A stretch of DNA of 64,000 nt from Fibrobacter sp. (lineage in GTDB: Bacteria > Fibrobacterota > Fibrobacteria > Fibrobacterales > Fibrobacteraceae): positions 16,965 through 80,964 of the forward strand of contig JAGDBD010000045.1 in the NCBI GenBank assembly GCA_017959225.1, written 5' to 3'. A program made the translations under genes and the position numbers. Positions 5,546 to 55,243 of this stretch are shown piece after piece (the stretch's first letter is position 1; every line of letters starts with the position of its first letter). The notes beneath the pieces are model-generated. The model was not told the DNA's origin. It searched no databases and worked only from the letters and a program-made list of their open reading frames with translations.

Positions 5546-6285
5546 TGGATTTTAAACCTTGTGCCATTGTACCGGTGTACCGTCACGAAAATACGGTTCG
5601 TACGGTTGTCCAAAATTTGAACGCCCAGAATTTGCCGGTGATCATTGTGGATGACGGCAATACTCCTGAAGCTTTGCACGTGCTGCAACGCGTTGCACAG
5701 GAAATTCCGAATGTAATGGTTGTTTCTCACAGTGTGAACATGGGAAAGGGCGGAGCCGTTTGCACGGGCTGTAAAGAAGCTTTTAAGGCGGGCTTTACCC
5801 ATGCGCTGCAGATCGATGCGGATGGTCAACACGATCCTTCCATGATTCCGTTTTTGTTAAAAGCGGCTCGGAAGCATCCGGAGTCTTTGATCGGAGGATT
5901 TCCGCAGTACGATGCCAGCGTTCCCAAGGGCCGTGAAATCGGTCGAAAAATCACCAACTTTTGGATTGCCGTGGAAACTCTTTCTAAAGAGATCCCGGAT
6001 GCTATGTGTGGCTTCCGCGTTTACCCACTAAAGTCCACGGTGCCCGTTTTGGATAAAATCGTGACTTTCCGCATGGGATTTGATATTGAAATTTTGGTGC
6101 GCCTTGCCTGGGCGCAAGTCAAAATGCATTTTTATCCGGTGAAGGTGATTTACCCGGAAAATGGAGTTTCGAATTTCCGAATGCTTCACGACAATTTGGA
6201 AATTTCCTGGCTGCATACGCGCCTTTGCTGTGGAATGCTCCTCCGTTTGCCAAAACTTTTATTGCGAAAGAAAAAACATGGCTGA
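5545..6285 (+). CDS. Glycosyltransferase family 2 (N-terminal half of ApeJ)
   Basis: IVPVY, IIVDDGN, NMGKGGA, DADGQH and CGFRVYP. Starts at a TAATG overlap. Confidence 0.88.
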   Translation: MDFKPCAIVPVYRHENTVRTVVQNLNAQNLPVIIVDDGNTPEALHVLQRVAQEIPNVMVVSHSVNMGKGGAVCTGCKEAFKAGFTHALQIDADGQHDPSMIPFLLKAARKHPESLIGGFPQYDASVPKGREIGRKITNFWIAVETLSKEIPDAMCGFRVYPLKSTVPVLDKIVTFRMGFDIEILVRLAWAQVKMHFYPVKVIYPENGVSNFRMLHDNLEISWLHTRLCCGMLLRLPKLLLRKKKHG

Positions 6286-7240
6286 AGAACACTGGTCCCA
6301 AATTGAAGAAGCGTCGAAGGCGGCGTGGGAATTTCGCTTTATGCTGTGGGTGACGATTCACCTGCCGCGTAAACTCGTGGAATGGATCGTGGCCGTCATT
6401 GTGTTCTTTTTTTACTTGGGAGCGGCTCCAGTTCGAAAGCGTTCACGGCTATTTTTAGATCACGTTTCCAAAATGAAAGTCGAAAAGGTGCCGCCTTTTG
6501 CCGTGTATCGTCATATCCTTGCCTTTGCCCTTTCGATGATCGAAAAAATTCGAGGGTGGGCTGGGAAAATGTCCCTTTCGGAACTGGAAACGCAAAATGA
6601 TGATATTGACGAATTGGTGAACCTTCTCGATAGCGGAAAGGGTGCTTTTATCCTTTGTTCGCACTTGGGAAATATCGAAGCCATGCGCTCTTTGACAGGG
6701 TATCACAGGGAACATACCAAACGGGATTTCCAAGTTTTTCCTGTAGTGGATTTTTCGGGAACAAAGCATTTTAACGCACTTCTCCGTGAACTGAATCCGG
6801 AATTGATGACCAATAGTTTTGACGCCAATTCGATCGGTGTCGATACGGCAATCGATATGCGTGAAAAAATCCAGGCGGGAAACCTTGTGGCGATTGCAGG
6901 TGATAGAACTTCTGCTAATTCCTTAGACCGCTTTATTCCGCTGAACTTTTTAGGCGACAGTGCCCAGTTCCCGGAAGGCTCTTTTGCTTTGGCGAATATT
7001 TTAAAAGCGCCTGTCTATTTTATCTTTGCGTTCCGCAAAAAAGATTTAGACATTACGTCGCCCTATGAATTTCATATAATCCGTTCTAAAACGGAACTGG
7101 GCGGAAAACGTTCCGAACAAAAACAGCAAATGGCAAATCTCGCTGCCGAATATGTTGCCCACTTGGAAAAATTCTGCTTGGAACATCCTTACCAGTGGTA
7201 CAACTTTTACGACTTCTGGCAAAAGGGAGAATCGAAATGA
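6278..7240 (+). CDS. LpxL/HtrB-like lipid acyltransferase (C-terminal half of ApeJ)
   Basis: Starts MAEEHWSQIEE; has SHLGNIE, AGDRT and PYQWYNFYDFW. Confidence 0.85.
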   Translation: MAEEHWSQIEEASKAAWEFRFMLWVTIHLPRKLVEWIVAVIVFFFYLGAAPVRKRSRLFLDHVSKMKVEKVPPFAVYRHILAFALSMIEKIRGWAGKMSLSELETQNDDIDELVNLLDSGKGAFILCSHLGNIEAMRSLTGYHREHTKRDFQVFPVVDFSGTKHFNALLRELNPELMTNSFDANSIGVDTAIDMREKIQAGNLVAIAGDRTSANSLDRFIPLNFLGDSAQFPEGSFALANILKAPVYFIFAFRKKDLDITSPYEFHIIRSKTELGGKRSEQKQQMANLAAEYVAHLEKFCLEHPYQWYNFYDFWQKGESK

Positions 7241-7674
7241 CTGGAAAAGTTTTAAAAACCTCTGTGGATATTCAAGTTCAATTCTATGACTTGGACCCCA
7301 TGAATGTTGTTTGGCACGGCAACTATGTGAAGTACATGGAAACGGCCCGTTGCGCCCTGCTTACCAAAATTCAATACGATTACACCGAAATGGTGAAAGC
7401 GGGTTATGCTTGGCCTGTCGTGGAAATGAATCTCAAGTATATCCGCCCGCTTCGTTTTATGCAATGGGTACGTGTGGAAGTGACCCTTGTAGAATATGAA
7501 GTATGCATGAAGCTGAAGTATAGATTTATCGATATTGAAACAGGCAAAGTGGTAACCAAAGCGGAAAGCACGCAGATGGCGGTTAAAATTTCAACTCGGG
7601 AATCCCAGCTGATGACACCGGCGGATTTTGTCGCCAAGGTCGAAGCGGCAATGGCAAAGGAAGAAAATGCTTAA
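7237..7674 (+). CDS. 4-hydroxybenzoyl-CoA-thioesterase-family acyl-CoA thioesterase (ApeK-like)
   Basis: VQFYDLDPMNVVWHGNYVKY. Starts at an ATGA overlap. Confidence 0.9.
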   Translation: MTGKVLKTSVDIQVQFYDLDPMNVVWHGNYVKYMETARCALLTKIQYDYTEMVKAGYAWPVVEMNLKYIRPLRFMQWVRVEVTLVEYEVCMKLKYRFIDIETGKVVTKAESTQMAVKISTRESQLMTPADFVAKVEAAMAKEENA

Positions 7675-8266
7675 AACTCTTTTCACGGTGATTGTTGCTT
7701 GCCAAGCAATGCTTTGGGCAGCGGATGCGGCGATTTGGAAGTCTCCGGCGAATGTGGATTCTCCGGAAGTTCAAAAAGTAATGCAGGTGCTTTCTGCCGC
7801 GGAAACGGTGAGCGGCACCTTTGTTCAAAAGCGGACCGTTGTGAAAATCAAACGGACTTTTGAATCCACGGGCCGTTTTAAAATTTCCCAAAAAGAAGGC
7901 ATCACTTGGGATATGGAAAAGCCTTTTGCGTCTAAACTCGTCATTACGGATTCTAAAATCGTTCAGACGAATGAGGACGGTTCTCAAGTAGAAATGGCGT
8001 CTTCGGAAAATGTCATCTTTAGAGAAATTGCGGCTTCGATGAGAGCGGTTCTCGGTGGAAATCTCGCCGTTTTACAGAATCGTTTTGAACTGTATTTTTT
8101 GAAAACGAAAAACGGTTGGAATGTGGGACTTGTTCCCAAAGAAAAAACGATTCGATCTGCGATCTCTTCCATCGTTCTTGAAGGCGATGGGAATTTGAAA
8201 AAAGTGGAACTTGTCGATGGCGAAGGAAATGTGTTGACTTATGAATTTGAACAATCTGGAAAATAA
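7667..8266 (+). CDS. LolA-like periplasmic carrier (ApeL-like)
   Basis: Signal peptide, then GTFVQKR...STGRF...ITWDMEKPF, and a position between the thioesterase and MMPL genes. Confidence 0.8.
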   Translation: MLKTLFTVIVACQAMLWAADAAIWKSPANVDSPEVQKVMQVLSAAETVSGTFVQKRTVVKIKRTFESTGRFKISQKEGITWDMEKPFASKLVITDSKIVQTNEDGSQVEMASSENVIFREIAASMRAVLGGNLAVLQNRFELYFLKTKNGWNVGLVPKEKTIRSAISSIVLEGDGNLKKVELVDGEGNVLTYEFEQSGK

Positions 8267-10553
8267 AAAACGCTATTTGAATATTGGCATTTGGGCGTTG
8301 CTGCATATCGCTCTGATTGTTGCAGTGGTCCTTTCGTATCCATGGAAGATCGATCGCAATTTGTATTCTATCGTTCCGGAATCCGAAACCTCTCCGGAAA
8401 TCCATACAGCGGAAACGGTCCTTGCGGCTCGGACATCTTCCCGCATAATGCTGTTTGTGGGAGATTCGGATTTTACAGTGGCAAAAACCGCTGCCGAAAA
8501 AATCGGGCATACGCTTTTAAGCAGTAAGCAAATCGAATCCGCATCTTGGACTGTGGATCCGTCTTCGATGAAGGAAATTTCAGATTACCTGTTTGCGGAA
8601 CGCTTTGCTCTTCAAGATCCTTCTATTTTGCAAATGGACGATTCTGCTGCCGCGGATTATTTCTATAGCAAAGCGCTTTCCCGCATTTATGGAGCTTTCC
8701 CCACGAGCGACCTTTCCCGTTTGGAAGAAGACCCTTATTTGCTTTCGCAAAATGCACAAGACAGAGTGCTCTTGGGCTCTCCTCTGACGATGAGCCAAAT
8801 GACTCTGCGCGATGACTATTTGGTTGTGGAAGATTCCGGCAGAACCTACGTCTTTATTCAGGCAAAAATTTCGATGGAAACGTCGGCATTTGCTTCGGAA
8901 GATCATATTTTGGGAGTTTTGGAAGATAAAATCGAAGCTTTGCAAAAGGAATATCCGGGTTTGCGGATAGAAAAATCGGGAGTTCCTTTCCACAGCTATT
9001 CGAGCTCAGAACAGGCTCAAGTAGAAGTTGCTTGGATTTCTGGAATTTCTACCGTTGCGGTTTTGCTATTACTCTTGTTGGTGTTCCGTTCGGCGCTTCC
9101 GATTGTGACGACTCTTGCGTCGATTGGTGTTGCAATTCTTGCGGCTATCGGGGCAACACTTGCAACCTTCCATGAAATTCACATCTTTACGTTTATCTTT
9201 GGAACGAGCGTTATCGGTGTAAGTATTGACTATGCGCTGCATCATTTTGCAGATAGGGAAGCTCAGGTGAAGAGCATGCTCTTAGGCTTTATGACGACGG
9301 AACTCAGTTACATTGCGCTTGTAATTGTGGACTTCCCGATTCTCCGTCAGATGGCGTTCTTTTCTATGGTGGGGCTTGCCAGTGCGCTTCTTTCGGTGCT
9401 GCTTGTGTTCCCATTTGTGTCGGAGAAGATGGAAGGACAGGGAAATTTCCCACTGAAGATTGCACAACTCGCTTTGACGGGGTATTCGAAGCTTGAACGG
9501 ATTCCGAAAGTGGCCCGCTATATTATTTTCGTTGTAGCGGCTGCTGCTCTGATCCCCGGTTTTGTAAAGCTCAGCGTTCAAACGGACATTCGTTCCATGT
9601 ACACGGTCGCTCCAGAGCTCGGCGCTTCGGAAATGAAAGTTTCGCAGTGGATGAACATGGGGATCGCTCCCACATACTTTATTGTGAGCGGTGACTCCGA
9701 AGATGACGTTTTGAAAAAAGAAGAAGCTTTAACAGAAAAGCTCCGTGCCGCAGAAAAAGATTCTCTGTTGAAATCTCATCTTGCACTGTCGGACATTTTG
9801 CCTTCAAAAGATAGGCGCTCCCGTTTGAACGAATTGCTTTCCAAGTCTTTGCCCATCAAGTACAAGGAACTTTGCAAGCAACTGAAAATGAAACCGGTAA
9901 AAAATGCTCAGAAAAAGCTTTTGACTGCCGATGAATCGGAATTGAACTCGGGCCTTGAATCATTGCCGGGACAGCTTCAAAGCATGCGTGAAATGCTCTG
10001 GATTGGAAACGTTTCTGGAAAGTATTACAGCGCAGTCCTTCCGCAGCATGTGTCCAAAGATTTTAACCCGAAGCAGTATGCGGATCCGGAAAATGGAGTT
10101 TATGCAGTCAATAAAATCGATGAAGTGAACGGCGCTTTGACGGAACTTTCTTTGACTGCGCTTTCGCTGGTAGCTTTCGCCTATTTTGCGGTGTTCTTCA
10201 TTCTTTCTTTTGTTTATACGTGGCGAGATTCCTTGCGTGTGGTGCGCGCTCCGGTGCTCGCTTGCGTCTTTACGCTTTCTATGTTCGGCTACATGGAAAT
10301 ACCGGTTAATTTCTTTGCAATCACCGGTCTAATCCTCGTGTTGGGCATTGGAATTGATTATGCGCTTTTCTTTAAGGACTCTAGAAACCATACGGATTCG
10401 ACGGCGTTTGCGGTGATGCTTTCGGCTGCGACGACGCTGATTTCTTTTGGGACGCTTTCGTTTAGCGGATTTGCTCCGGTTTCGGTTTTGGGGCTTTCTG
10501 TGCTGCTTGGAATTTCGGTGTGCTTCTTGCTTTCACCATTTACGCGGGATTAA
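8241..10553 (+). CDS. MMPL/RND-type exporter (ApeM-like)
   Basis: Two TM bundles, each with G(V/I)(S/G)IDYAL(H/F), separated by large soluble loops. Confidence 0.88.
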   Translation: MNLNNLENKKRYLNIGIWALLHIALIVAVVLSYPWKIDRNLYSIVPESETSPEIHTAETVLAARTSSRIMLFVGDSDFTVAKTAAEKIGHTLLSSKQIESASWTVDPSSMKEISDYLFAERFALQDPSILQMDDSAAADYFYSKALSRIYGAFPTSDLSRLEEDPYLLSQNAQDRVLLGSPLTMSQMTLRDDYLVVEDSGRTYVFIQAKISMETSAFASEDHILGVLEDKIEALQKEYPGLRIEKSGVPFHSYSSSEQAQVEVAWISGISTVAVLLLLLLVFRSALPIVTTLASIGVAILAAIGATLATFHEIHIFTFIFGTSVIGVSIDYALHHFADREAQVKSMLLGFMTTELSYIALVIVDFPILRQMAFFSMVGLASALLSVLLVFPFVSEKMEGQGNFPLKIAQLALTGYSKLERIPKVARYIIFVVAAAALIPGFVKLSVQTDIRSMYTVAPELGASEMKVSQWMNMGIAPTYFIVSGDSEDDVLKKEEALTEKLRAAEKDSLLKSHLALSDILPSKDRRSRLNELLSKSLPIKYKELCKQLKMKPVKNAQKKLLTADESELNSGLESLPGQLQSMREMLWIGNVSGKYYSAVLPQHVSKDFNPKQYADPENGVYAVNKIDEVNGALTELSLTALSLVAFAYFAVFFILSFVYTWRDSLRVVRAPVLACVFTLSMFGYMEIPVNFFAITGLILVLGIGIDYALFFKDSRNHTDSTAFAVMLSAATTLISFGTLSFSGFAPVSVLGLSVLLGISVCFLLSPFTRD

Positions 10554-42388: not shown

Positions 42389-43953
42389 TGTTATACGCAC
42401 TGGTTTTTGCTCCGTTCCTCGCCGCCCTTTTGATGGTTGCCGCTTCCGGCAAGGATGCCCGTTCGGCTTCTCGCCTTGCGGTGATTCTTTCGGCGATTCA
42501 CTTGCTTGCAAGCGTTGTGCTCCTGTTCTCGGGTGATTACAATACGACGCCTGCTGGATGGTTTACGATCCCGGGAGCTGGCATCACGGTGACCCTCTCT
42601 TTTGCGGTGAACGGATTCTCCGCTTGGATGGTCTTTTTGGCCAATATCATCACCCTTGCCGCGTTGATTAGCGCTCGCAAGACGACAGGCGGCAACTACC
42701 GCAATTTCGCCATTGGACTGTTTGCTCTCCTTGGCGCTTTGAACGGTACGTTCCTTGCCTCCGACGCGGTGCTCTTCTTCTTCTTCTTTGAAGCTCTTGT
42801 GTTGCCAGCGGCAATTCTCATCGGTTCTTATGGTGGACCGGAACGTCGTGAAGCGGCTGTGAATTTTGCCCTTTACACGCTCATCGGTTCTGCTCCGATG
42901 GCAGTGGCTCTCTGGTACTTGATCTCCATTGCAGGATCTTCTTATGTGCTTCCGGTTGCCCAGGCGGCCCAAGCCCTTCCGGAATCCACACAGACGATTC
43001 TCTTCTGGTGCTTTGCGGCGGCATTCTGGGTTAAGACTCCGCTCTTCCCGTTGCACGGTTGGCAGGCTCAGACTTATGCAGAAGCTCCGGCTAGCCTGAG
43101 CGCCGTTTTGACGGGTTCCATGTCGAAGGCTGGCGTTTATGGATTCTATTTCTGGGTCCTTGCTATTTTCCCGGACATCGCTTTCAAAAATGGCATGATT
43201 CTTCTTGGATTCGGCGTTTTGACAGCGGTTTACGGAGCTTTCATGGCCATGCGCGCTAAAGACATCAAGAAGCTTCTCGCATTTAGCTCCATGAGCCACT
43301 TAGGCCTTGCCATTGCCGGTATCTTTACGTTGAACGTGGAAGTGTTCCCGGCGGTGCTCGTGCTTCTCGTTGGCCACGGACTTTCTGCTTCGGCACTCTA
43401 CATTCTTGCGGGTTCTGCGGAACGCCTTGCTGGCCACCGTATTCTCGACAAAATGGGCGGCTTTGCTAGCCGTTATCCGGTGTTCGGATTCTTCTTTGGT
43501 GTGGCGAGCGTCCTTGCGATCGCTATTCCGGGTACCGCAGGCTTTGTCAGTGAATTCCTTGTGCTTCTCGGCCTTTGGAAAGTGAGCTGGTTCATTGCCT
43601 TGCTGGCTGGCCTTTGCATTATTTTGACCGGCGTTTATATGCTGCGCCTGATTCAGAAAGTGCTCTTTGGCGAACCGGGCGAAATTTCGGAAGATCAGAA
43701 AAAGCTTCGTTTCCCCATTGCGGATGCTGTGGCTGTAGCTCCTCTTTTGATTCTTCTCGTTGTCTTCGGTGTGCATCCGCATCCGATTACGAATACGCTG
43801 GATTATACCCAGGTGACGGAAGAACAGCAGGCTGAAATCGAAGCGGCGATTGCCGCGGCGGAACCGGAAGCCCTTTCTGCAGAAGATTCTCTGCAGGTGA
43901 AGCAGTCTTTTGAACAAGAAGTAAAACAAGTGGAGGCTGAAGATGTCCGCTAG
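42388..43953 (+). CDS. nuoM: NADH-quinone oxidoreductase subunit M
   Basis: FFFFEAL, VKTPLFPLHGW and AFSSMSHLG. Confidence 0.94.
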   Translation: MLYALVFAPFLAALLMVAASGKDARSASRLAVILSAIHLLASVVLLFSGDYNTTPAGWFTIPGAGITVTLSFAVNGFSAWMVFLANIITLAALISARKTTGGNYRNFAIGLFALLGALNGTFLASDAVLFFFFFEALVLPAAILIGSYGGPERREAAVNFALYTLIGSAPMAVALWYLISIAGSSYVLPVAQAAQALPESTQTILFWCFAAAFWVKTPLFPLHGWQAQTYAEAPASLSAVLTGSMSKAGVYGFYFWVLAIFPDIAFKNGMILLGFGVLTAVYGAFMAMRAKDIKKLLAFSSMSHLGLAIAGIFTLNVEVFPAVLVLLVGHGLSASALYILAGSAERLAGHRILDKMGGFASRYPVFGFFFGVASVLAIAIPGTAGFVSEFLVLLGLWKVSWFIALLAGLCIILTGVYMLRLIQKVLFGEPGEISEDQKKLRFPIADAVAVAPLLILLVVFGVHPHPITNTLDYTQVTEEQQAEIEAAIAAAEPEALSAEDSLQVKQSFEQEVKQVEAEDVR

Positions 43954-45343
43954 TTTTGTAAATCTCCTTCCGATGATTTTCGTTGCGCTTGGCGCAATGG
44001 TCAGCATCGCGACGGAACCGTTCGTTGCCGATAAGAACAAACAGAAGGTGCTCCCTTGGGTTGCAAGCGCGTTCCTTTTGCTTTCGGCGATTTCCTTTGT
44101 ATTCGTGAAGGTGGACGCAGCTCCGCTTTACGGATTCTTTGAAATGGACACGATCCGCATTGTGCTTTCCCTTGCCGTGTTGCTTTGCGCATTCCTCGGC
44201 ATTGGCGGTTTGCAGGTGACCCTTGCCCGTGAAAAGTATCCGGCTGGTGAACCCTACGGACTTGCTCTTCTCGCCACGGTAGGCGTATTGATCATGGTGC
44301 AGTCGGTGGATTTCCTTCCGCTTTTCATTGGTATGGAACTGGCTGCTTATCCGATCTACGGTCTTGTCGGTTTGCGCCGCAAGGATCGCAATGCGAACGA
44401 AGCTACTTTCAAGTACTTTGTAACAGGCGCGGTCTTTAGCGTGGTTTTCTTGTACGGTATGTCTTTGATTTACGGTGCGACGGGTACGACGCACTTCGGT
44501 GGAAAAATTCTCGCTGGTCGTGAACTTCTCTATTCCGCAGGTGTTCTGCTTTCGGCTTTTGCGCTCCTTTTCAAAGCCGGTGCTGCTCCGATTCACTTCT
44601 GGGTTGCTGACGTTTATTCGGGCGCTTCCGTTGCGGTGACGGGCTTTATGGCTGCTGTCGTGAAGGTCGGCGCTCTTGCCGCTTTGGGTTCGCTTTGGAT
44701 CCGTTCGGGCGTCGAAAAACTTGCCCCGGTGATGATCATCGTTGCCATCCTTTCGATTGTGATCGGTTCGCTTTCGGGAATTGCCCAGAAGTCGATTCGT
44801 CGCATTATCGCATTCTCTGCGGTGATGAACGCAGGCTTTATGGTGCTTGGCCTTGTGAGCAAGGATTTGGGCGCAATGTATTATTTCCTTGTGACGTATG
44901 CTTTGGCTTCTGCCGGAGCTCTCGCTGCGATTTCTGCCTTTAGCGGCAAGAATGATGAAAAGGAAACCCTGGTGGACATTCGCGGTCTTGGCCGTCGTCA
45001 TCCGCTCGAAGGCATTGCTGCCGTGGTTTGCCTTGCAAGCCTTGCCGGTCTTCCGCCGCTGTCTGGATTCCTTGCCAAGTTCGTCTTGTTCTCGGGCGTT
45101 GTGAGCACGGGCTTTGTCGCTCTCGCAGCATTCGGCGTTGTGTTCTCGATCATCGCCATTTACTATTACTTGCGCGTGGCGATTTCGATCTTTGCTCCGG
45201 CAGAAAAGACGGATGACGCAAAGAAAGAAACCGCTTTGAGCTCTTCGACGTACTTCTTGCTTCGCTTTGGCGTTACAGTGACGTCCATCGTTCTCGTGCT
45301 TCTCGCTTTGATACCGATCCTTTTACAGGTGAAGACATTCTAA
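43943..45343 (+). CDS. nuoN: NADH-quinone oxidoreductase subunit N
   Basis: EATFKYF, FKAGAAPIHFWVADVY and GLPPLSGFLAKF. Confidence 0.94.
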   Translation: MSASFVNLLPMIFVALGAMVSIATEPFVADKNKQKVLPWVASAFLLLSAISFVFVKVDAAPLYGFFEMDTIRIVLSLAVLLCAFLGIGGLQVTLAREKYPAGEPYGLALLATVGVLIMVQSVDFLPLFIGMELAAYPIYGLVGLRRKDRNANEATFKYFVTGAVFSVVFLYGMSLIYGATGTTHFGGKILAGRELLYSAGVLLSAFALLFKAGAAPIHFWVADVYSGASVAVTGFMAAVVKVGALAALGSLWIRSGVEKLAPVMIIVAILSIVIGSLSGIAQKSIRRIIAFSAVMNAGFMVLGLVSKDLGAMYYFLVTYALASAGALAAISAFSGKNDEKETLVDIRGLGRRHPLEGIAAVVCLASLAGLPPLSGFLAKFVLFSGVVSTGFVALAAFGVVFSIIAIYYYLRVAISIFAPAEKTDDAKKETALSSSTYFLLRFGVTVTSIVLVLLALIPILLQVKTF

Positions 45344-45368
45344 AAAACATGGGATGACCACGCCTGCT

Positions 45369-45446
45369 GTCATTGCGAGGCGAAGGCTTTACAAGACTCT
45401 GCAACTTGTTGCAGAGTCTTGTTATCCCCAATGGGGAGAAGCTATC
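45369..45446. repeat. REP-like left half-site interrupted by nested palindromes
   Basis: GTCATTGCGAGGCGAAG...GAAGCTATC enclosing the perfect inverted repeat ACAAGACTCTGCAAC-TT-GTTGCAGAGTCTTGT (45391-45422) and TCCCCA-A-TGGGGA. Confidence 0.55.
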
Positions 45447-45622
45447 AGAACAATCCTCCTATAAAAAAGTTTTCGGGAAAATTTTTCCCGAAATTTTAAA
45501 ACGTTTGTATAATCGTTGTAATATCGGCTTCTTTTTTTACGTTTGCCGCCGAGGTTTAGCCAAATAAAAGTGTTATATTAAAAAAACAACTTATAATTTT
45601 GTTGCATTTGGCGAGGTCTGGT

Positions 45623-48600
45623 ATGCTGAGGAAGCTTTGCTTAGCCGTTCTTATTTTTGCGACGCTGCTGTTTGCAGAAGCCCCTGTCGCTGTAGAAGCT
45701 TACGATGAACAGGCAAGCGACCCGAACCAGGTCACCCTCCGCATACGACTGACCAATCATACGGAAGATACTTTACAGAATGTACGTCTCCGATATTTTT
45801 TAGATTACGAAAAAGGCCGGGACTTGACGTTGTCCCCTTATTACCTTCCAGGGGCGACGTTATCGATAGATACCCTGGATTTTTGCCTAGCGGTCAATAT
45901 CAATTTTTCGAAACTTGCCCCGGGGGTGTTCCCGAATGACGCCGGCATGAGCCTCGGATTGTATTACTCGGATTACGGGCCTTTCGACAAGGATGAAAAT
46001 TTCAGCTACCCGGGAACGGATTCTTTCGTGGATGCAAAACGCATCGCCGTATATCTGGAGGGCGTGCTGATTGCCGGAGAGAGTCCTACGGATAGGGACG
46101 TCCCGCAAATCCGTATTTCGGCGTTTCAACCGGAAAAAGCTGCCCGGGGCCAATGGGTGAAATTGAAAAACGTGGGCGAGCGGTCGGTAGATTTGAAATA
46201 CCTGTCCGTTTCGGATTCATTGGATCGTCACACCCTAGGAGAATCGGTTGGAAATCGAACGCTTGTTCCGGGCGATACCCTGCTTGTCTGCGTCTCTTCG
46301 CCTTGTGATGGAGACCTTGAATTGCCGAACCTGTCCTTAGGGAATGCGGGGGAATTGACCGTTGCATACGGAGCGATTTTGACGGATTACGTTGCCTGGG
46401 GAAAATCCGGCGGTAGTTCTTCGGAAGCGGTTTCGAAGAATCTATGGTCGAATTCGGAAGACTTTTTGCAGACAGGCAAGAGCCTAGGCCCGTCGCTCCC
46501 TTATGCGAAAGGAAGCTTTTTCCGCCGAGCAGACTTGCAGCAGTTTTCGTCATTTGCTTGGATGCTTTATTCGCAGGATGAAATCCATAAAGCGGACGGA
46601 GAACTTCCCAATTCGGCGCCGTTTTCTTGGAATGACGGATCAAAGATAGTCTTGCCGGAAAACGCGACGATGCATTTTGCCTGGATGCCCGTTCCGGGTT
46701 CAAAGTCGTACCGGCTAAATGTATATTCCGGGGACACGTCTCTGGTTTATCGGCAAATTACTTCGGAACTGTCCGCGGATGCGGCTCTTCCGGATGGAAA
46801 GTATTTGTGGAAAGTCGAAAGCTCTTCCGATGAGGCTACTTGGGGCGCGACGCCTGCTTCTGAAGGCCGACTTTATGAAGTGGAAAAATTGTCAGCAAGC
46901 TTATCCTACCAGGATCAGTGTTCCCTGGATGTGGAACCGATTGCGGCGCGCAAGGATACGCGTCTGCTTGTCACCAATTGGGGCATGTTTGCGGATATCC
47001 GCGGCTGGGACGAAAGCCATGTAGGGCATGCCCACTGGGACGAGGAAGAAAGCTGGCGTTGCTGGGCAGTGGCCATCCAGGAATTGAACCGTTACTTTGG
47101 AGGGAACCTGACGCAGGACGAAATCAAGTTCAGAGGGATGGATAAAAAGGCTGCAGGTAAAATAATCCATAAAGAGTATGCGATGTGGCGTAATGGAGGT
47201 GCCGAATATACTGCCGTTCGGGAAATATTGCCAGATATTCTTGGAGGAACTTCGGTGGTATATCATGACTCGACTCCGACGGAAGAATGGATTCGACAGT
47301 CGATAGATGAAGGCTTGCCTCTGTATGTCGCGACCACACAGCATGCGATGGTTATCGATGCGTACCGGGTCCGGAGTGACGGGCGGATGGAAACCCGTTT
47401 TTTGAATCCGCATAACGATGGGGGGAGCGAATGGCAGGTGTTTTCATCCGCAGGGATAGTATCGTATTTTACGTATGAAAGGCCGACCCGGGTTTTAAAT
47501 ACGGATTCGCTCATCCATTTGGATTCGGACGGGGACGGACTTATGGACTATGACGAAACCGATCGCTTCGGGACGGACCCGTACAAGGCGGATTCGGACG
47601 GGGATGGCATTCCGGACAAGACAGAAATCTGGTCCCATACGATACGGGAATCGGTCCGCTGGATGGCTGCATCCGACGATTCGAGCCAGAATCCGGTTGA
47701 TATGTTGAATGGCGCGTTGATTGTCGGCGTCGAAAAGGAACTGTTTTCGGATTCCGATGGGGATGGAATGTGTGCGGAACTGGATATTGATTCGGACGGA
47801 GATGGTATACGCGATGGGGATGAGGACTTGAACGGGAATGGCATTGTGGAAGAAGGGGAAACGGATCCCTACATTGCGAATGGTGGCGGACTTCCTGTCC
47901 ACGCAGAAGACGATGTTCCCGGTGATTTTGCGTTGTATTCATTGGGAAAGCTTTCGTTGAATGACGGGAGTGAGTGTAGATATAAAGCGAATCTAAATTC
48001 TTCAAATTCAGAGTGTGCACTTGCTTCGGAAAGTTCGGCGGAGTATTTCGCCGTGTCGCTTGCTGGTGGTAAGCAAAGCGTGGTGCATTCCAAGGGCGGC
48101 GTTTTGGTGCGGAATCGGGATTCGGTAAATACGGTCAATATATATTCCGACAAGGAAGTTAAACCGACACTGAACGTGCAAAAAGGGGCGTCGGTGATAG
48201 GGTATGCCTACTTGCCTGAACAAAATTGGGTTTGGTCGGTGAATTCCAACTTGGAGCCCATTGATGTGGGGAATCAAGAAAAGATAGTCCGTTCTGGAGA
48301 GGTCTTTTTGCTGCTTGACGGGGCAAAAATCCGGACATTGAAAGTGGAGGCCGGCGGCACCTTGTTGATGGGTACAGGCGAAATGTACGTTGGGTCCTTG
48401 CAACTGGAATCGGGGAGTGTTGTCGATTTTACCGAATATGGGTATGCGACGGTTTTGCATGTGAATGAGACGGTGATTTGGCGGGGAGGCGTCAACCTAA
48501 ACGGATTGCGCGGCGATGGAATCCTCGAACGATTGTATTCGATTGCCTGCGGTTTTAAATTGATTTATCATGGCAATGAAACACTGTTTATTGAAGGCGA

Positions 48601-48781
48601 TTGGTCTGGAACCCTATTCGCACCCAAGGCGAAACTTGTTCTCGGTCAAGCAACAAAGTCCCTGTATGGACGTTTTGTGGGAAATGGCATCACGGTTCAT
48701 CAGTATGCGACTCTTCATGTTGTCCATTTTGATCCACAAACGAAAACAGCCATTGCGTATTTTAATATGGAGGAAAAATGA
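45623..48781 (+). CDS. Large secreted multidomain protein: CBM3-like, lamin-tail, Fn3-like, papain/C39-like peptidase, DxDxDG Ca-binding repeats and a C-terminal beta-rich domain
   Basis: Signal peptide; RIRLTN...VRLRYF...ENFSY; QWVKLKNVGERSVDL...DYVAWG; CWAVA...HAMVIDAY...LNP; DSDGDG repeated four times. Confidence 0.65.
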   Translation: MLRKLCLAVLIFATLLFAEAPVAVEAYDEQASDPNQVTLRIRLTNHTEDTLQNVRLRYFLDYEKGRDLTLSPYYLPGATLSIDTLDFCLAVNINFSKLAPGVFPNDAGMSLGLYYSDYGPFDKDENFSYPGTDSFVDAKRIAVYLEGVLIAGESPTDRDVPQIRISAFQPEKAARGQWVKLKNVGERSVDLKYLSVSDSLDRHTLGESVGNRTLVPGDTLLVCVSSPCDGDLELPNLSLGNAGELTVAYGAILTDYVAWGKSGGSSSEAVSKNLWSNSEDFLQTGKSLGPSLPYAKGSFFRRADLQQFSSFAWMLYSQDEIHKADGELPNSAPFSWNDGSKIVLPENATMHFAWMPVPGSKSYRLNVYSGDTSLVYRQITSELSADAALPDGKYLWKVESSSDEATWGATPASEGRLYEVEKLSASLSYQDQCSLDVEPIAARKDTRLLVTNWGMFADIRGWDESHVGHAHWDEEESWRCWAVAIQELNRYFGGNLTQDEIKFRGMDKKAAGKIIHKEYAMWRNGGAEYTAVREILPDILGGTSVVYHDSTPTEEWIRQSIDEGLPLYVATTQHAMVIDAYRVRSDGRMETRFLNPHNDGGSEWQVFSSAGIVSYFTYERPTRVLNTDSLIHLDSDGDGLMDYDETDRFGTDPYKADSDGDGIPDKTEIWSHTIRESVRWMAASDDSSQNPVDMLNGALIVGVEKELFSDSDGDGMCAELDIDSDGDGIRDGDEDLNGNGIVEEGETDPYIANGGGLPVHAEDDVPGDFALYSLGKLSLNDGSECRYKANLNSSNSECALASESSAEYFAVSLAGGKQSVVHSKGGVLVRNRDSVNTVNIYSDKEVKPTLNVQKGASVIGYAYLPEQNWVWSVNSNLEPIDVGNQEKIVRSGEVFLLLDGAKIRTLKVEAGGTLLMGTGEMYVGSLQLESGSVVDFTEYGYATVLHVNETVIWRGGVNLNGLRGDGILERLYSIACGFKLIYHGNETLFIEGDWSGTLFAPKAKLVLGQATKSLYGRFVGNGITVHQYATLHVVHFDPQTKTAIAYFNMEEK

Positions 48782-48803
48782 AATTTGTAACGATCGCTTT
48801 GTT
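48746..48803 (+). repeat. Cassette head repeat, copy A (copy B at 49681-49738)
   Basis: 53/58 identical. It covers the RBS, the start codon and the first signal-peptide codons, plus the last codons of the large gene. Confidence 0.9.
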
Positions 48804-49635
48804 AGGAGTATTTTCGGCTGTCCTTGCGAAAACGGATACCACGTTTACCTTCAACGCCATCACCTTTTCGGAACACTATCCGCGTTTTGAAGGGGAAGAT
48901 TACGATTCCTTGCCGGAGTGGGCTGAAATAGAGAATGTGCTGGCTTATGACCCCGATTGGAATGTAATCTGCATGGATCGATTTGATGGAGTTAGGCTAG
49001 TTTTTTCACGTATCGATTCTTCGGTCGCTGTGGCTCATGTGGCAGTTGAGGGTTGGACCGATGCTGAGTATTATCCTTGCTGGCAGTTCTGGCGGGTTGG
49101 AGACAAGAAAAAGTACCCGATGACGAGTATCATTATCGACGAATTCAAAATGTACCATGAATGCGGCTTTTTAAAGATGCCCTGGGCTCAGGCGGATTCG
49201 ATTATCAGACATATTGTTTTTGATTTCATGCTTGACGGGGATACCACTGCGGATTGGGAAGACGGGGATTATTACAATGCCACAGGGCTTGAAATGAAAG
49301 CAAGCTTTGTAGTCCCTGGCGAAGAAAGGAAGAATCCGATGGAAATTGGGCTTCCTGATTGGAAATTGACTTTGCCAAGTAATGTCATTGAGTTGATGGA
49401 ATCGGTTTCGATTCCTCGCACTAACGCCGTCGCTTTAACTACGCCACAAGTGCATAAGCTCGTGCCCGGTAAATTCGCTGTTGTCGGCCTTGCTTCCGAA
49501 ACGTCTTTCCAACTTTTTGATTTGAACGGCAAGGTCTTGAAATCGGGAACGTTGAAAAATGGGGGCGTGGTGAACACGCCAACGCAGCCGGTGATTCTAA
49601 AACTTGAAAATGGAGCGCAATTCCTGCTGAAGTAA
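48778..49635 (+). CDS. Secreted protein of unknown function with a T9SS-like/Fibrobacter C-terminal domain
   Basis: Signal peptide MKFVTIALL..., and tail SETSFQLFDLNGKVLKSG...LENGAQFLLK. Confidence 0.75.
   Translation: MKFVTIALLGVFSAVLAKTDTTFTFNAITFSEHYPRFEGEDYDSLPEWAEIENVLAYDPDWNVICMDRFDGVRLVFSRIDSSVAVAHVAVEGWTDAEYYPCWQFWRVGDKKKYPMTSIIIDEFKMYHECGFLKMPWAQADSIIRHIVFDFMLDGDTTADWEDGDYYNATGLEMKASFVVPGEERKNPMEIGLPDWKLTLPSNVIELMESVSIPRTNAVALTTPQVHKLVPGKFAVVGLASETSFQLFDLNGKVLKSGTLKNGGVVNTPTQPVILKLENGAQFLLK
49494..49635 (+). repeat. Cassette tail repeat, copy A (copy B at 50507-50648)
   Basis: The first 65 bp are identical (49494-49558 = 50507-50571), and the copies stay closely similar to the stop codon. 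Confidence 0.9.
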
Positions 49636-49637
49636 TC

Positions 49638-49663
49638 GATCGCTTCACTTCGTTCGCGATGAC
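49638..49663. repeat. REP-like right half-site
   Basis: GATCGCTTCACTTCGTTCGCGATGAC. Its reverse complement resembles the 45369 site. Confidence 0.55.
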
Positions 49664-49680
49664 ACGGTCAAAAACTTTGA

Positions 49681-49738
49681 ACGGCCATTGCGCATTTTAG
49701 CATGGAGGAAAAATGAAATTTGTAGCGATCGCTTTGTT
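49681..49738 (+). repeat. Cassette head repeat, copy B
   Basis: ACGGCCATTGCGCATTTTAGCATGGAGGAAAAATGAAATTTGTAGCGATCGCTTTGTT. Confidence 0.9.
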
Positions 49739-50648
49739 TGTTGCCTTTTCTGTTTTGTATGCCCGTGAAGTGAATTCTACATTTCTTTGGGACGCTACCG
49801 TTGATACAACCGGCCGTGTGATAACCGGATCAACGGATGAAAGCTCTGGGTATTGGCATGAACTTGGCAAAGGTTCGTATGACGATTGCACTGAAGTTGA
49901 AAAATCAGATTTGATTTGGCCTTCTGATGTCAAAGAAGATATTTATGGAGATTTCTTTGGGCCGTTGACGCGGGCTTACGGAGGCATTGTGGGAGAATTT
50001 ATATTGGGAAAACAGATTGAGGGCGACACAAGTGGAATGAGCGGTTGCTCGCGGTATAGCGTAGGCATCGGTTTTAACACCTGGAATTGGGATCAAGAGA
50101 GTGTGGACATTTCCGCTTGGAATGGCTTTTGCTTGGAATATTCCTCTACGATGCGTTTTGATATTCGGTTGAAGCAATACATTTTTTCCCGTGAAACTCT
50201 AGATTTGTTTGCTTTTGTGCCTGCTTCGGATTCGCTTTCTGTCATTGATATTCCATGGGAAAATTTTTCTTGGTATGGATCCTTCTTCCATCCTTTTGAA
50301 ACGAGGGATGAAGCGCTTCAAAATAACACTGCTGTGCTACTTGTATTTTGGAGCGATTCCGCAGCTACGGGTAGTTTTAAGTTGACCAAGTTCGGGTCGT
50401 ATGGAAGTTGTGACGGATCTTTTGTTTCAACGCCCAAGACATATGCCATTCCTTCGATTCAAGTCTCTAAAATTTCGCCGTCCCAATATTCGATTTCCGG
50501 TCTTGATTCCGAAACGTCTTTCCAACTTTTTGATTTGAACGGCAAGGTCTTGAAATCGGGAACGTTGAAAAGCGGAGGAGTGGTGAATGCTTCGACGCAT
50601 CCGGCGATTTTGAGGCTTGAAAATGGAGCGCAATTCCTGTTGAAGTGA
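49713..50648 (+). CDS. Secreted protein, possibly with a CBM11/CIA30-like carbohydrate-binding fold, and a T9SS-like C-terminal domain
   Basis: Signal peptide; aromatic-rich core (VDISAWNGFCLEYSS, IPWENFSWY); same tail as the 48778 gene. Confidence 0.7.
   Translation: MKFVAIALFVAFSVLYAREVNSTFLWDATVDTTGRVITGSTDESSGYWHELGKGSYDDCTEVEKSDLIWPSDVKEDIYGDFFGPLTRAYGGIVGEFILGKQIEGDTSGMSGCSRYSVGIGFNTWNWDQESVDISAWNGFCLEYSSTMRFDIRLKQYIFSRETLDLFAFVPASDSLSVIDIPWENFSWYGSFFHPFETRDEALQNNTAVLLVFWSDSAATGSFKLTKFGSYGSCDGSFVSTPKTYAIPSIQVSKISPSQYSISGLDSETSFQLFDLNGKVLKSGTLKSGGVVNASTHPAILRLENGAQFLLK
50507..50648 (+). repeat. Cassette tail repeat, copy B
   Basis: Matches 49494-49635. Confidence 0.9.
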
Positions 50649-50651
50649 TTG

Positions 50652-50683
50652 GATTGCTTCGACCCTTTGGGGCTCACGATGGC
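50652..50683. repeat. REP-like right half-site (degenerate)
   Basis: GATTGCTTCGACCCTTTGGGGCTCACGATGGC directly after the stop codon. Confidence 0.5.
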
Positions 50684-50755
50684 TCTTAGGAGGCGCTTTT
50701 TGTTTGGACGAATATTTTATATTGGCTTTAAAAAGTCAAAAATAAAGGATTGAAT

Positions 50756-51250
50756 ATGGAAAAGATTTTCCGCACCGGTATCGGATTTGATGTTCACAAA
50801 CTTGTGGAAGGTCGCAAGTGCATTATCGGCGGCGTGGATATTCCTTATGAAAAGGGACTCCTTGGCCACAGCGACGCGGACGTTCTGCTCCATGCGATTA
50901 GCGATGCATTGCTCGGAGCCGCAGGCCTCGGTGACATCGGCACGTACTTCCCCGATACCGATCCCGCTTTCAAAAACGCAGACAGCATGGTTCTCCTCGG
51001 ACGCGTTCGTGAAGAAGTCGTCAAAGCGGGCTGCAAAATTGAAAGCCTCGACAGCGTAGTGATTTGCGAACGTCCGAAGGTAAATCCGCATCGCGAAGAA
51101 ATGAAGGCGAACATTGCACGTGTATTGCAGATTCCTGTGGAACGAGTCGGTGTTAAAGCAAGTACCAGTGAAAAGCTGGGATTCACCGGTCGCGGAGAAG
51201 GCATCGCTTCGCAAGCGGTGGCGACCGTAAGTAAGATTTATGCGGAATAA
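50756..51250 (+). CDS. ispF: 2-C-methyl-D-erythritol 2,4-cyclodiphosphate synthase
   Basis: [25 protein letters not shown] and [17 protein letters not shown]. Confidence 0.97.
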
Positions 51251-53596: not shown

Positions 53597-53773
53597 GTCG
53601 ATTGCAATCTTTTTTGCAAGAAAATTCTGCGGCAAAAGAAATTCCATTAGAATTCATATCGGCGAATTCGGAAAGAAATCGAAACTTTTGTTTTTAGCAG
53701 ACGACGATAAATTTTTTATAACTAGCGAGAGCCTATGATGGAATTTACTTTAGAGAAAAAAAGGAGTTCCGTT

Positions 53774-55243
53774 ATGAAACGTTTGGTATTGGCTGCCTCG
53801 CTTGTGGGGGCAACCTCTTTGTTTGCCGATTTGCCTACAGCAGCTCAAGTGCAGGCAAATATGGGCATGGGCTATAACATCGGAAACACCATGGAAGTTC
53901 CGGCGAATTACGGTGGCCCGACTGCATGGGGAAACATTTTCCCAACTCAAACCTATTTGGATTCCATCAAGGCGGCAGGATTCAATACGGTTCGAATTCC
54001 CTGCGCTTGGGATAGCCACGCAAGTAACAACGTGATCAATTCGGGTTGGCTAGATTCCGTGCAGACCGTGGTAGACTATGCGATGAATGCGGGCCTCTAT
54101 ACGATTTTGAATATTCACTGGGACGGTGGCTGGTTGCAAGATGACGATTTTACCAGTGCAAAATCCAATATTGTGGAAAAGCAAAAAGCGTACTGGACGC
54201 AGATTGCAAACCGTTTTGCAAATTACGATGAGCATTTGCTCTTTTCGGGCATGAACGAACCGGGCCTGGATTTAAGCTGGAATGCGTCGCTGATTCCGGC
54301 ACTTGTATCGTATCAACAGGCGTTCATCGATGCAGTCCGAGCAACGGGCGGTAACAATGCGACTCGTACACTGATCGTTTCTGGACCGAAAACCGATATC
54401 GATGTGACGTGCAATTATTATACCACAATGCCTACAGACAATGTCTCGGGCCGTTTGATGGTAGAAGTGCACTATTACGATCCTTATCAGTACACGTTGA
54501 TGACGAGTGAACAGAACTGGGGCGCTTCCGAAAGCATTCTACCTCAGTATTACTACGGCGATTATTTGAGCACGACAGAAATCAAGCGCAACGCAGGTTA
54601 TAACGCTTGGAGTAAAACCGTTGACGATTCCCTTGCAACCATTAAACATGCGAATGGACAATTCGCCAAGATGAAACGGAACTTTATCGATAAAGGTTAC
54701 CCGGTGATCATCGGTGAATATGGCGCAAATCTCCATTCGGATGTTTTGAGCGGATCCGCTTTAACGCAGCACAAAAATGGTCGAGTCCAGTGGCACAAAG
54801 ACGTTGCCACGGCTGCAAAAAATTACGGTCTCACCCCGATCCTTTGGGACATGGGAAACGAATCGAATCAGCTTGACAACATGTGTTACATTCGCCATTC
54901 CGGAAAAGACGCTTCTACAGCAGGAAAAGTGGTGGACGTTGACGTGATCAATGCCCTTCGCCATGCATACGGCATGGGCGATTATGTGAACAACGGAATC
55001 GCATTTTCTAGCAGCGGTGATGTAACAGCGATCGATGCAAAGGTAACGATGAACATGTCTTTGCGCTTGGAAAATAACTTGCTGACTTCGGACAAGGACA
55101 TTGCCTTGTTCGATGTGAACGGCAATCTGTTGCGCCGTGTGCATGCAAACGGTTCTTCTGCAATTCTTTCGATTTTGAATATGCAGCAAGGCGTTTATAT
55201 TGCAAAGAGCGGTTTGCAGGTGATCCGTTTCCGGGTTAAGTAA
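53774..55243 (+). CDS. Glycoside hydrolase family 5 (subfamily-4-like endoglucanase) with a T9SS-like tail
   Basis: MGMGYNIGNT, VRIPCAW, LNIHWDGGW, NEP (acid/base), IIGEYG (nucleophile) and tail LFDVNGN...GVYIAK. Confidence 0.9.
   Translation: MKRLVLAASLVGATSLFADLPTAAQVQANMGMGYNIGNTMEVPANYGGPTAWGNIFPTQTYLDSIKAAGFNTVRIPCAWDSHASNNVINSGWLDSVQTVVDYAMNAGLYTILNIHWDGGWLQDDDFTSAKSNIVEKQKAYWTQIANRFANYDEHLLFSGMNEPGLDLSWNASLIPALVSYQQAFIDAVRATGGNNATRTLIVSGPKTDIDVTCNYYTTMPTDNVSGRLMVEVHYYDPYQYTLMTSEQNWGASESILPQYYYGDYLSTTEIKRNAGYNAWSKTVDDSLATIKHANGQFAKMKRNFIDKGYPVIIGEYGANLHSDVLSGSALTQHKNGRVQWHKDVATAAKNYGLTPILWDMGNESNQLDNMCYIRHSGKDASTAGKVVDVDVINALRHAYGMGDYVNNGIAFSSSGDVTAIDAKVTMNMSLRLENNLLTSDKDIALFDVNGNLLRRVHANGSSAILSILNMQQGVYIAKSGLQVIRFRVK

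Follow-up and report, generated by a model that had tools for sequence, protein, structure and literature searches.

In a 64,000-nt stretch of Fibrobacter sp. contig JAGDBD010000045.1 (the window), a gene encoding a secreted protein of 1060 aa, here named Large, is followed by two small genes, A and B, which are near-identical at both ends and unrelated in between. This locus lies between nuoN and ispF, and all its genes are on the + strand. In close relatives the same site carries other complements of such small genes, in other orders. The preferred reading, to which we assign a probability of about 0.75, is that A and B belong to a cassette array shaped by ordinary homologous recombination, through unequal crossover and gene conversion, with no dedicated plug-in machine. 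The initial annotation had noticed the like ends and unlike middles, and had proposed a plug-in system in which passenger domains are swapped between constant export signals; a purpose-built system of that kind fits the data less well than does ordinary homologous recombination within a tandem array.

Repeat anatomy of the array

The operon and its repeated parts are laid out as follows; T9SS stands for type IX secretion system, CBM for carbohydrate-binding module and REP for repetitive extragenic palindrome.

45599–48781, + strand: Large, first in the operon; encodes a secreted protein of several domains (1060 aa; open reading frame (ORF) call)
48745–48815, + strand: head copy A, made up of the 11 final codons of Large and the 13 opening codons of the A signal peptide
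48778–49635, + strand: cassette gene A, 285 aa, with signal peptide, family A core and T9SS-like C-terminal domain
49485–49636, + strand: tail copy A, 'internal-type' variant; covers the final 50 aa of the C-terminal domain and the stop codon
49494–49558, + strand: exact 65-nt tract, identical to 50507–50571
49637–49679, + strand: inter-cassette spacer (spAB), kept after internal cassettes of relatives; holds the so-called REP-like motif
49680–49750, + strand: head copy B, a relic of the Large 3′-end (49680–49712; non-coding, with ribosome-binding site), then 13 signal-peptide codons of B
49713–50648, + strand: cassette gene B, 311 aa, allele B1, with signal peptide, all-beta CBM-like core and T9SS-like C-terminal domain
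50498–50649, + strand: tail copy B, 'terminal-type' mosaic variant (repeat search and alignment of tails)
50650–50756, + strand: terminal spacer, from the array to ispF, its first ∼35 nt being a diverged counterpart of spAB

A repeat search returned the head (48745–48815 and 49680–49750) as 71 nt with 86% identity and the tail (49485–49636 and 50498–50649) as 152 nt with 88% identity, and the counts given in the initial annotation (53 of 58 positions alike in the head, 65 nt without a mismatch in the tail) were correct. Head and tail are each present twice in the window; a 64-nt tail probe found these two sites only, and had no match in 100 shuffles. When proteins A and B were compared by BLASTP, the aligned regions were the signal peptide and the last 76 aa (67%) only. 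The Sec signal peptides of A and B could be read directly off the sequence as MKFVTIALLGVFSAVLA/K and MKFVAIALFVAFSVLYA/R.

The 5′ repeat reaches into the upstream gene. Large ends in ...AYFNMEEK-stop, its final codons include GGAGG, and its TGA overlaps the ATG of A (ATGA); homologous operons of six Fibrobacter lineages have kept both this C-terminus and the ATGA junction. The 33 nt upstream of the B ATG read T-A-I-A-H-F-S-M-E-E-K-stop, while Large ends in T-A-I-A-Y-F-N-M-E-E-K-stop, and 29 of the 33 nt are identical to the last 11 Large codons. Since these nucleotides read as C-terminal codons of Large, the claim that head B preserves coding sequence of the upstream gene was right. The head had also been taken for an export signal; head B is instead what remains of a Large 3′-end, and it still supplies the ribosome-binding site. 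Relics of this kind, 33 to >60 nt long, stand before the second cassette of the window, of the F. intestinalis-like locus L006 and of L020–24.

With its relic, signal peptide, core, and tail plus spacer, each cassette is a four-part unit, so that between one core and the next lies a conserved junction: tail (152 nt), spacer (43), relic (33) and signal-peptide start (38), together ∼266 nt. A scan of the + strand for terminators and promoters, between the cassettes and after B, gave nothing convincing. The half-site that had been called REP-like did not hold up: the motif GCTTCR..CDCGATG is common to the two post-tail sites and has no third site in the 64-kb window, and the spacers folded no better than shuffled sequences (z −0.05 and +0.89). 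With two sites only and no stable hairpin, a REP element or attachment site was ruled out, and the motif resembles an extension of the repeat unit that has decayed.

Strain polymorphism and recombination at the cassette ends

Comparison loci or contigs in relatives are given L-numbers (L002–L034), and X1 and X9 are public sequencing runs. In the close relatives, the flanking genes nuoN and ispF are ∼90% identical to those of the window, and the intergenic lead-in and the 5′ part of Large ∼95–97%. The arrays between them (Lg, Large) read:

Window: Lg-A-B1
L009 = L010: Lg-B2
L016: Lg-B3
L025: Lg-B1-A-B2
L026 (matched by a contig of run X9): Lg with an internal deletion-B2-A-B3
L027 = L028: A alone, Large gone
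L029: ...tail-spacer-B2

Six arrangements, differing in gene content and order, were found at the orthologous locus within the window's species group. B occurs as three alleles, each of which varies in its position in the array; their cores differ at synonymous sites by a dS (synonymous divergence) of ∼0.36 between B1 and B2, and of 1.25–1.45 between B3 and either of the others. Different cassette complements in sister strains had been predicted, and this polymorphism is the decisive evidence for a recombining array. Nearly all the comparison loci are metagenome assemblies, but the arrangements were met again in independent samples and in the genome of one isolate.

The ends and the middles of the cassettes have different histories. 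Between B1 of the window and B1 of L025 the core dS is 0.078 and the tail dS 0.43, while between B1 and B3 the values are 1.25 and 0.22, respectively. The greater likeness of ends than of middles includes synonymous and non-coding sites, and the spacer and relic are conserved too. In an alignment of 13 tails, the four-gamete test was violated by 90 of 153 informative site pairs, with a minimum number of recombination events of 6 in 152 nt; polymorphic blocks occur in all combinations, and 'terminal-type' blocks are found on A (L027), B1 (window), B2 (L029) and B3 (L026). Such discordance between core and tail, together with mosaic polymorphism, marks a family homogenised by recombination, and the earlier proposal that recombination rather than drift keeps the ends alike was thereby upheld. 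Low diversity of the tail was also considered as proof of homogenisation and was dropped, some core segments being equally invariant. The pairwise dN/dS (ratio of non-synonymous to synonymous divergence) of A and B is 0.12–0.44; since this is similar to that of Large, there is no overall sign of positive or diversifying selection in these comparisons.

In every lineage examined, tandem small genes share a tail specific to that lineage: ...FQLFDLNGKVLKSGTLKNGGVV... in the window's clade, ...VFDLNGNLLQRETWNGEA... in the F. intestinalis group and ...VFDVNGILLKQG... in L020–24. The order of the two cassettes in L020–24 is swapped between contigs. The F. intestinalis locus that was compared is tig-linked, and has three forms:

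L005, F. intestinalis: Lg-B
L006–8, F. intestinalis: B′-fragment, internally deleted Lg, A, 96-nt relic, B
L014, F. intestinalis type strain ATCC 43854 (isolate genome): as L006–8 but without A

In L034 (4001–11192), Lg1, a Large gene of 1063 aa, is paired with a B-like gene (304 aa), and next to this pair stands another, of Lg2 (902 aa, ∼30% identical to Large) and a small gene, Y, of an unclassified family. These two complete [Large-small gene] operons in tandem probably show the ancestral condition; if the second Large were deleted from it, a relic would be left.

The following steps are proposed. Tandem operons of the L034 kind would have lost the intervening Large, only its last codons being left as the relic; partial deletions of Large, of the kind that relic formation needs, are seen in F. 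intestinalis. The result would be a tandem array of complete, expressed small secreted-protein genes behind Large, in a single operon. General RecA-type homologous recombination, the pathway that we infer, would then act at the conserved junctions both within and between strains, and A and B would be alike at both ends because the junctions of such an array recombine. Unequal crossover would add, remove and reorder cassettes, and short-tract gene conversion would homogenise heads and tails and pair them anew with other cores. The junctions would persist both because they are functional, with a ribosome-binding site, signal peptide and export domain, and because they are homogenised.

Two observations concern the history of individual arrays. 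In L025, 37 nt of the terminal spacer, whose usual place is between the end of the array and ispF, come after the first cassette (4923–4959), which suggests that this cassette was formerly terminal and was later copied or moved. Further, when the window (43943–51247) was compared with L009 and L025, dS was strongly uneven: 0.52–0.70 in nuoN, 0.43–0.53 in ispF, 0.04–0.27 in the first ∼800 codons of Large and 0.34–0.95 in its last 260 codons. This pattern suggests that the 5′ part of Large was recently exchanged between lineages, old alleles being retained beside the cassettes.

Large, the cores and the tail

Large has a CBM3-like N-terminus (E 0.006 against the CBM3a structure, PDB 4b9c), an LTD domain, TSP3 repeats (Pfam CBM_3, LTD and TSP3_bac) and a conserved C-terminal region of 260 aa; its homologues are unnamed Fibrobacter proteins only. 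Scans of sequence collections with the Large C-terminus returned just 5 genome loci and 9 metagenome loci (the species-representative genome set scanned did not hold the window's own genome); the family is narrow. Two below-threshold hints were noted in Large, one of a papain-like peptidase in the middle of the protein (46886–47518; Peptidase_C10/C39_2, E ∼0.08) and a fainter one of an ice-binding-like adhesin in the C-terminal 260 aa (47999–48778; pAdhesive_15, E 0.27). In relatives, Large is often broken or lost while the small cassettes persist. It has an internal deletion of 1.5 kb in L026 (2290–3963) and run X9, is completely lost in L027/L028 (L027 4477–4654), is split into two ORFs in L002 (3006–6004), and is reduced in F. 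intestinalis L006–8 and L014 to a mini-gene joining 101 nt of its 5′-end to 209 nt of its 3′-end (L006 1641–1940).

That the cores of A and B have no detectable homology was confirmed. BLASTP was negative, and a profile–profile comparison (hhalign) of family alignments, distant members included, gave a probability of 0.4%; the same method gave 88% for A against the partner families C/D of other Large operons. Neither core matched a family in the Pfam and NCBIfam libraries, nor did the A core find a match in a profile search of the PDB. The AlphaFold2 model of the B core is an all-beta domain with a pLDDT (predicted local distance difference test) of 71, and its Foldseek matches are the jelly rolls of CBM4, CBM11 and CBM30 (E ∼1e-5, TM (template-modelling) score 0.5–0.57). 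The A core was modelled poorly (pLDDT 47), the confident part of A being the tail only; the helices predicted in it are weak evidence of a fold different from that of B. From these sequence comparisons and models, A appears to belong to the usual partner family of Large, B to be a CBM-like beta-sandwich, and the two to be unrelated proteins.

Distant homologues of B (P0024–31) have a canonical PF18962 tail, and no Large gene lies near them. The B core, which is elsewhere a free-standing T9SS cargo, was thus at some point recruited into its present frame. A tandem pair of distant B cores (298 and 306 aa) with canonical Por_Secre_tail domains, likewise with no Large nearby, is present in L033 (1540–4826).

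The C-terminal domain (CTD) of A and B had been called T9SS-like. The fold supports this, and the curated threshold does not. The AlphaFold2 models contain, within the last ∼75 residues, the seven-strand Ig-like beta-sandwich that defines a T9SS CTD, at residues 224–284 of A and 250–310 of B; over these final ∼60 residues both models are confident (block-mean pLDDT ∼67–89). The top Foldseek matches of model A were the T9SS substrate CTDs 8glk_D (TM 0.61) and 8gl8_D, and then the RgpB CTD (7pq4) and PorZ (5m11); these matches are weak (E 0.02–0.06; TM 0.45–0.61 for the CTD-only chains 8glk_D, 8gl8_D and 7pq4). Against TIGR04183, whose cut-off is 23 bits, the tails scored 12.7 (A) and 13.3 bits (B), and neither had a Pfam hit; by curated thresholds they thus belong to neither TIGR04183 nor PF18962. 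We read the A/B tail, on sequence and model together, as a divergent T9SS type A CTD and infer that the proteins are exported through that system. In F. succinogenes, T9SS export of CTD-bearing proteins has been proposed, and a Fibrobacter 'basic terminal domain' has been put forward as a T9SS signal (PMC6851124).

Elsewhere in the window, the 502-aa protein encoded at 53735–55243 has a signal peptide and a near-threshold canonical T9SS CTD (TIGR04183, 20.4 bits; cut-off 23). The corresponding protein of relatives carries the annotation Pfam Cellulase. The tail of the window protein is unlike those of A and B.

Alternative readings and related systems

Several points weigh against the array reading and the assignments made with it. 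Both tails lie under the curated T9SS threshold (12.7–13.3 against 23 bits), and the A core model, at a pLDDT of 47, is too poor to exclude a fold shared with B. All comparison loci but one come from metagenome or metagenome-assembled genome (MAG) assemblies (MEGAHIT, SPAdes or Logan), in which repeats are open to mis-joining. In the 5′ half of the tail, diversity is 0.04–0.05, which is not below that of the most conserved core segments, so purifying selection also contributes to tail conservation. Finally, run X1 holds the window strain at ≥99%, and its Logan unitigs tile the window's own path with no alternative joints; the excised or rearranged forms that had been anticipated were not seen in this run, represented by unitigs and contigs only, which also gave no evidence of high-frequency switching within the population.

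The plug-in system would be one under selection, in which constant export signals serve as recombination handles for swapping many passenger domains. Part of that idea survives, namely the recombining ends and the strain-variable complements at one locus, and it is further favoured by the unrelated cores of A and B, by the recurrence of the architecture in several lineages, and by the canonical tail that the B core has elsewhere, as if it had once been 'plugged' into this frame. The remainder of the proposal fared worse. Many copies of the ends around different cores had been expected, but a search of 5.8 billion proteins located this tail on two core families only, that of A and that of B (the latter with three alleles), and the 64-kb window holds no head or tail beyond the two copies of each. 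All cassettes are full-length ORFs with ribosome-binding site, start, signal peptide and stop; truncated, promoter-less donor copies are absent, and with them the silent reservoir of a silent-cassette system. Nor is there an integrase or recombinase among the neighbours of the locus (nuo genes, ispF, and genes for a NUDIX protein, a beta-lactamase-fold protein, an outer membrane protein and a cellulase), as an integron-like or site-specific system would have. The REP sites, as described above, also fell away. With values of 0.2–0.4, dN/dS shows no overall sign of diversifying selection, and the frequent loss or breakage of Large points to a locus that is dispensable and in decay no less than to an adaptive one. 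We therefore consider a dedicated system unlikely.

Rather improbable too is a reading in which the junction itself is selected as a 'homology frame' and is no mere by-product: relic, signal-peptide start and tail would be held identical from cassette to cassette, allowing cores of any fold to be captured, reordered or exchanged between strains by plain homologous recombination. Were it true, surface or secreted cargo would have its own counterpart of the integron, one that needs no recombinase, and the operon-private tail might double as a docking code for Large.

Strain variation might instead be an artefact of short-read assembly over repeats of 150–270 nt, with a single arrangement present in all strains and the ends alike only through duplication and purifying selection. 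The relatives do come from MEGAHIT, SPAdes or Logan assemblies, and in the run data Logan unitigs end at the repeats and tail depth is roughly doubled or tripled (∼2–3×). Yet the same arrangements are repeated across samples and assemblers (L009 = L010, L027 = L028, L006 = L007 = L008, and L026 = the X9 contig), and the isolate genome ATCC 43854 (L014) differs from both L005 and L006–8. Exact repeats are ≤65 nt, below the final k-mers of those assemblers, B alleles 12–33% apart are impossible to confuse with one another, and the synonymous discordance between core and tail is independent of cassette order. This explanation has very little probability left.

Just as improbable is that the tails are alike through co-evolution with a common receptor (Large or a lineage-specific T9SS component) and not through DNA exchange: they are indeed lineage-specific and uniform inside each operon, and the window's other T9SS cargo (the cellulase at 53735–55243) has a different, canonical CTD, but the identity reaches synonymous sites (65 nt exact), the non-coding spacer and the relic, the polymorphism blocks are mosaic, and in L027, where Large is lost, the A tail is unchanged. 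Selection could nevertheless operate in addition to gene conversion.

The array has parallels in known systems. In Helicobacter pylori, the bab/sab/hop outer-membrane-protein paralogues have near-identical ends and divergent middles, which are shuffled between loci by RecA-type gene conversion. The Fibrobacter array is similar in its conserved ends, divergent middles and strain differences in gene placement. However, the middles in H. pylori are homologous and the loci dispersed, while here two unrelated cores stand in tandem in one operon, what is left of the gene upstream forms part of the 5′ homology, and the 3′ homology is a putative T9SS export domain. In the contact-dependent growth inhibition (CDI; cdiA) and Rhs systems, each orphan toxin/immunity module has in front of it a piece of the large gene upstream, from the conserved 3′ region of that gene, and this piece provides homology for the recombination that brings the orphan beside the main gene. 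The downstream module here likewise comes after such a piece; unlike the orphans, which are C-terminal pieces expressed only after fusion, the Fibrobacter cassettes are stand-alone genes with their own ribosome-binding site, signal peptide and export domain, and no toxin/immunity pair was detected. Silent-cassette systems (Neisseria pilE/pilS, Borrelia vlsE, Mycoplasma MgPa) also have conserved flanks around variable segments, and variants made by recombination; in contrast, the array has neither an expression site nor silent truncated donors. With T9SS type A cargo (TIGR04183/PF18962), A and B share an N-terminal Sec signal and a C-terminal seven-strand beta-sandwich of ∼75 aa, but their tail is sub-threshold, a private lineage-specific variant confined to the cassettes of the operon. 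Nothing was found in the literature on gene conversion or cassette exchange of T9SS CTDs.

The underlying process is ordinary homologous recombination, and the mechanism is therefore not new. What the array adds is that T9SS cargo genes of a major fibre-degrading gut genus, if the tail is read correctly, can form a recombining cassette array in which export and translation signals double as homology arms, and in which otherwise close strains differ by gain, loss and reordering of unrelated cores, one of which is CBM-like. It would account for a group of Fibrobacter surface proteins that are labelled 'hypothetical' and vary from strain to strain, offers a clear-cut natural example of concerted evolution restricted to gene ends, and warns that such loci are prone to mis-assembly or mis-clustering in metagenomes.

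Two minor features of the comparison loci were recorded. Relative to L005–L008, L014 has an insertion of ∼2.4 kb (6167–8548) in the spacer between cassette B and the trigger-factor gene, and directly upstream of the tandem B-core pair of L033 lie a YoeB/RelB toxin–antitoxin pair and a Macro-domain gene.

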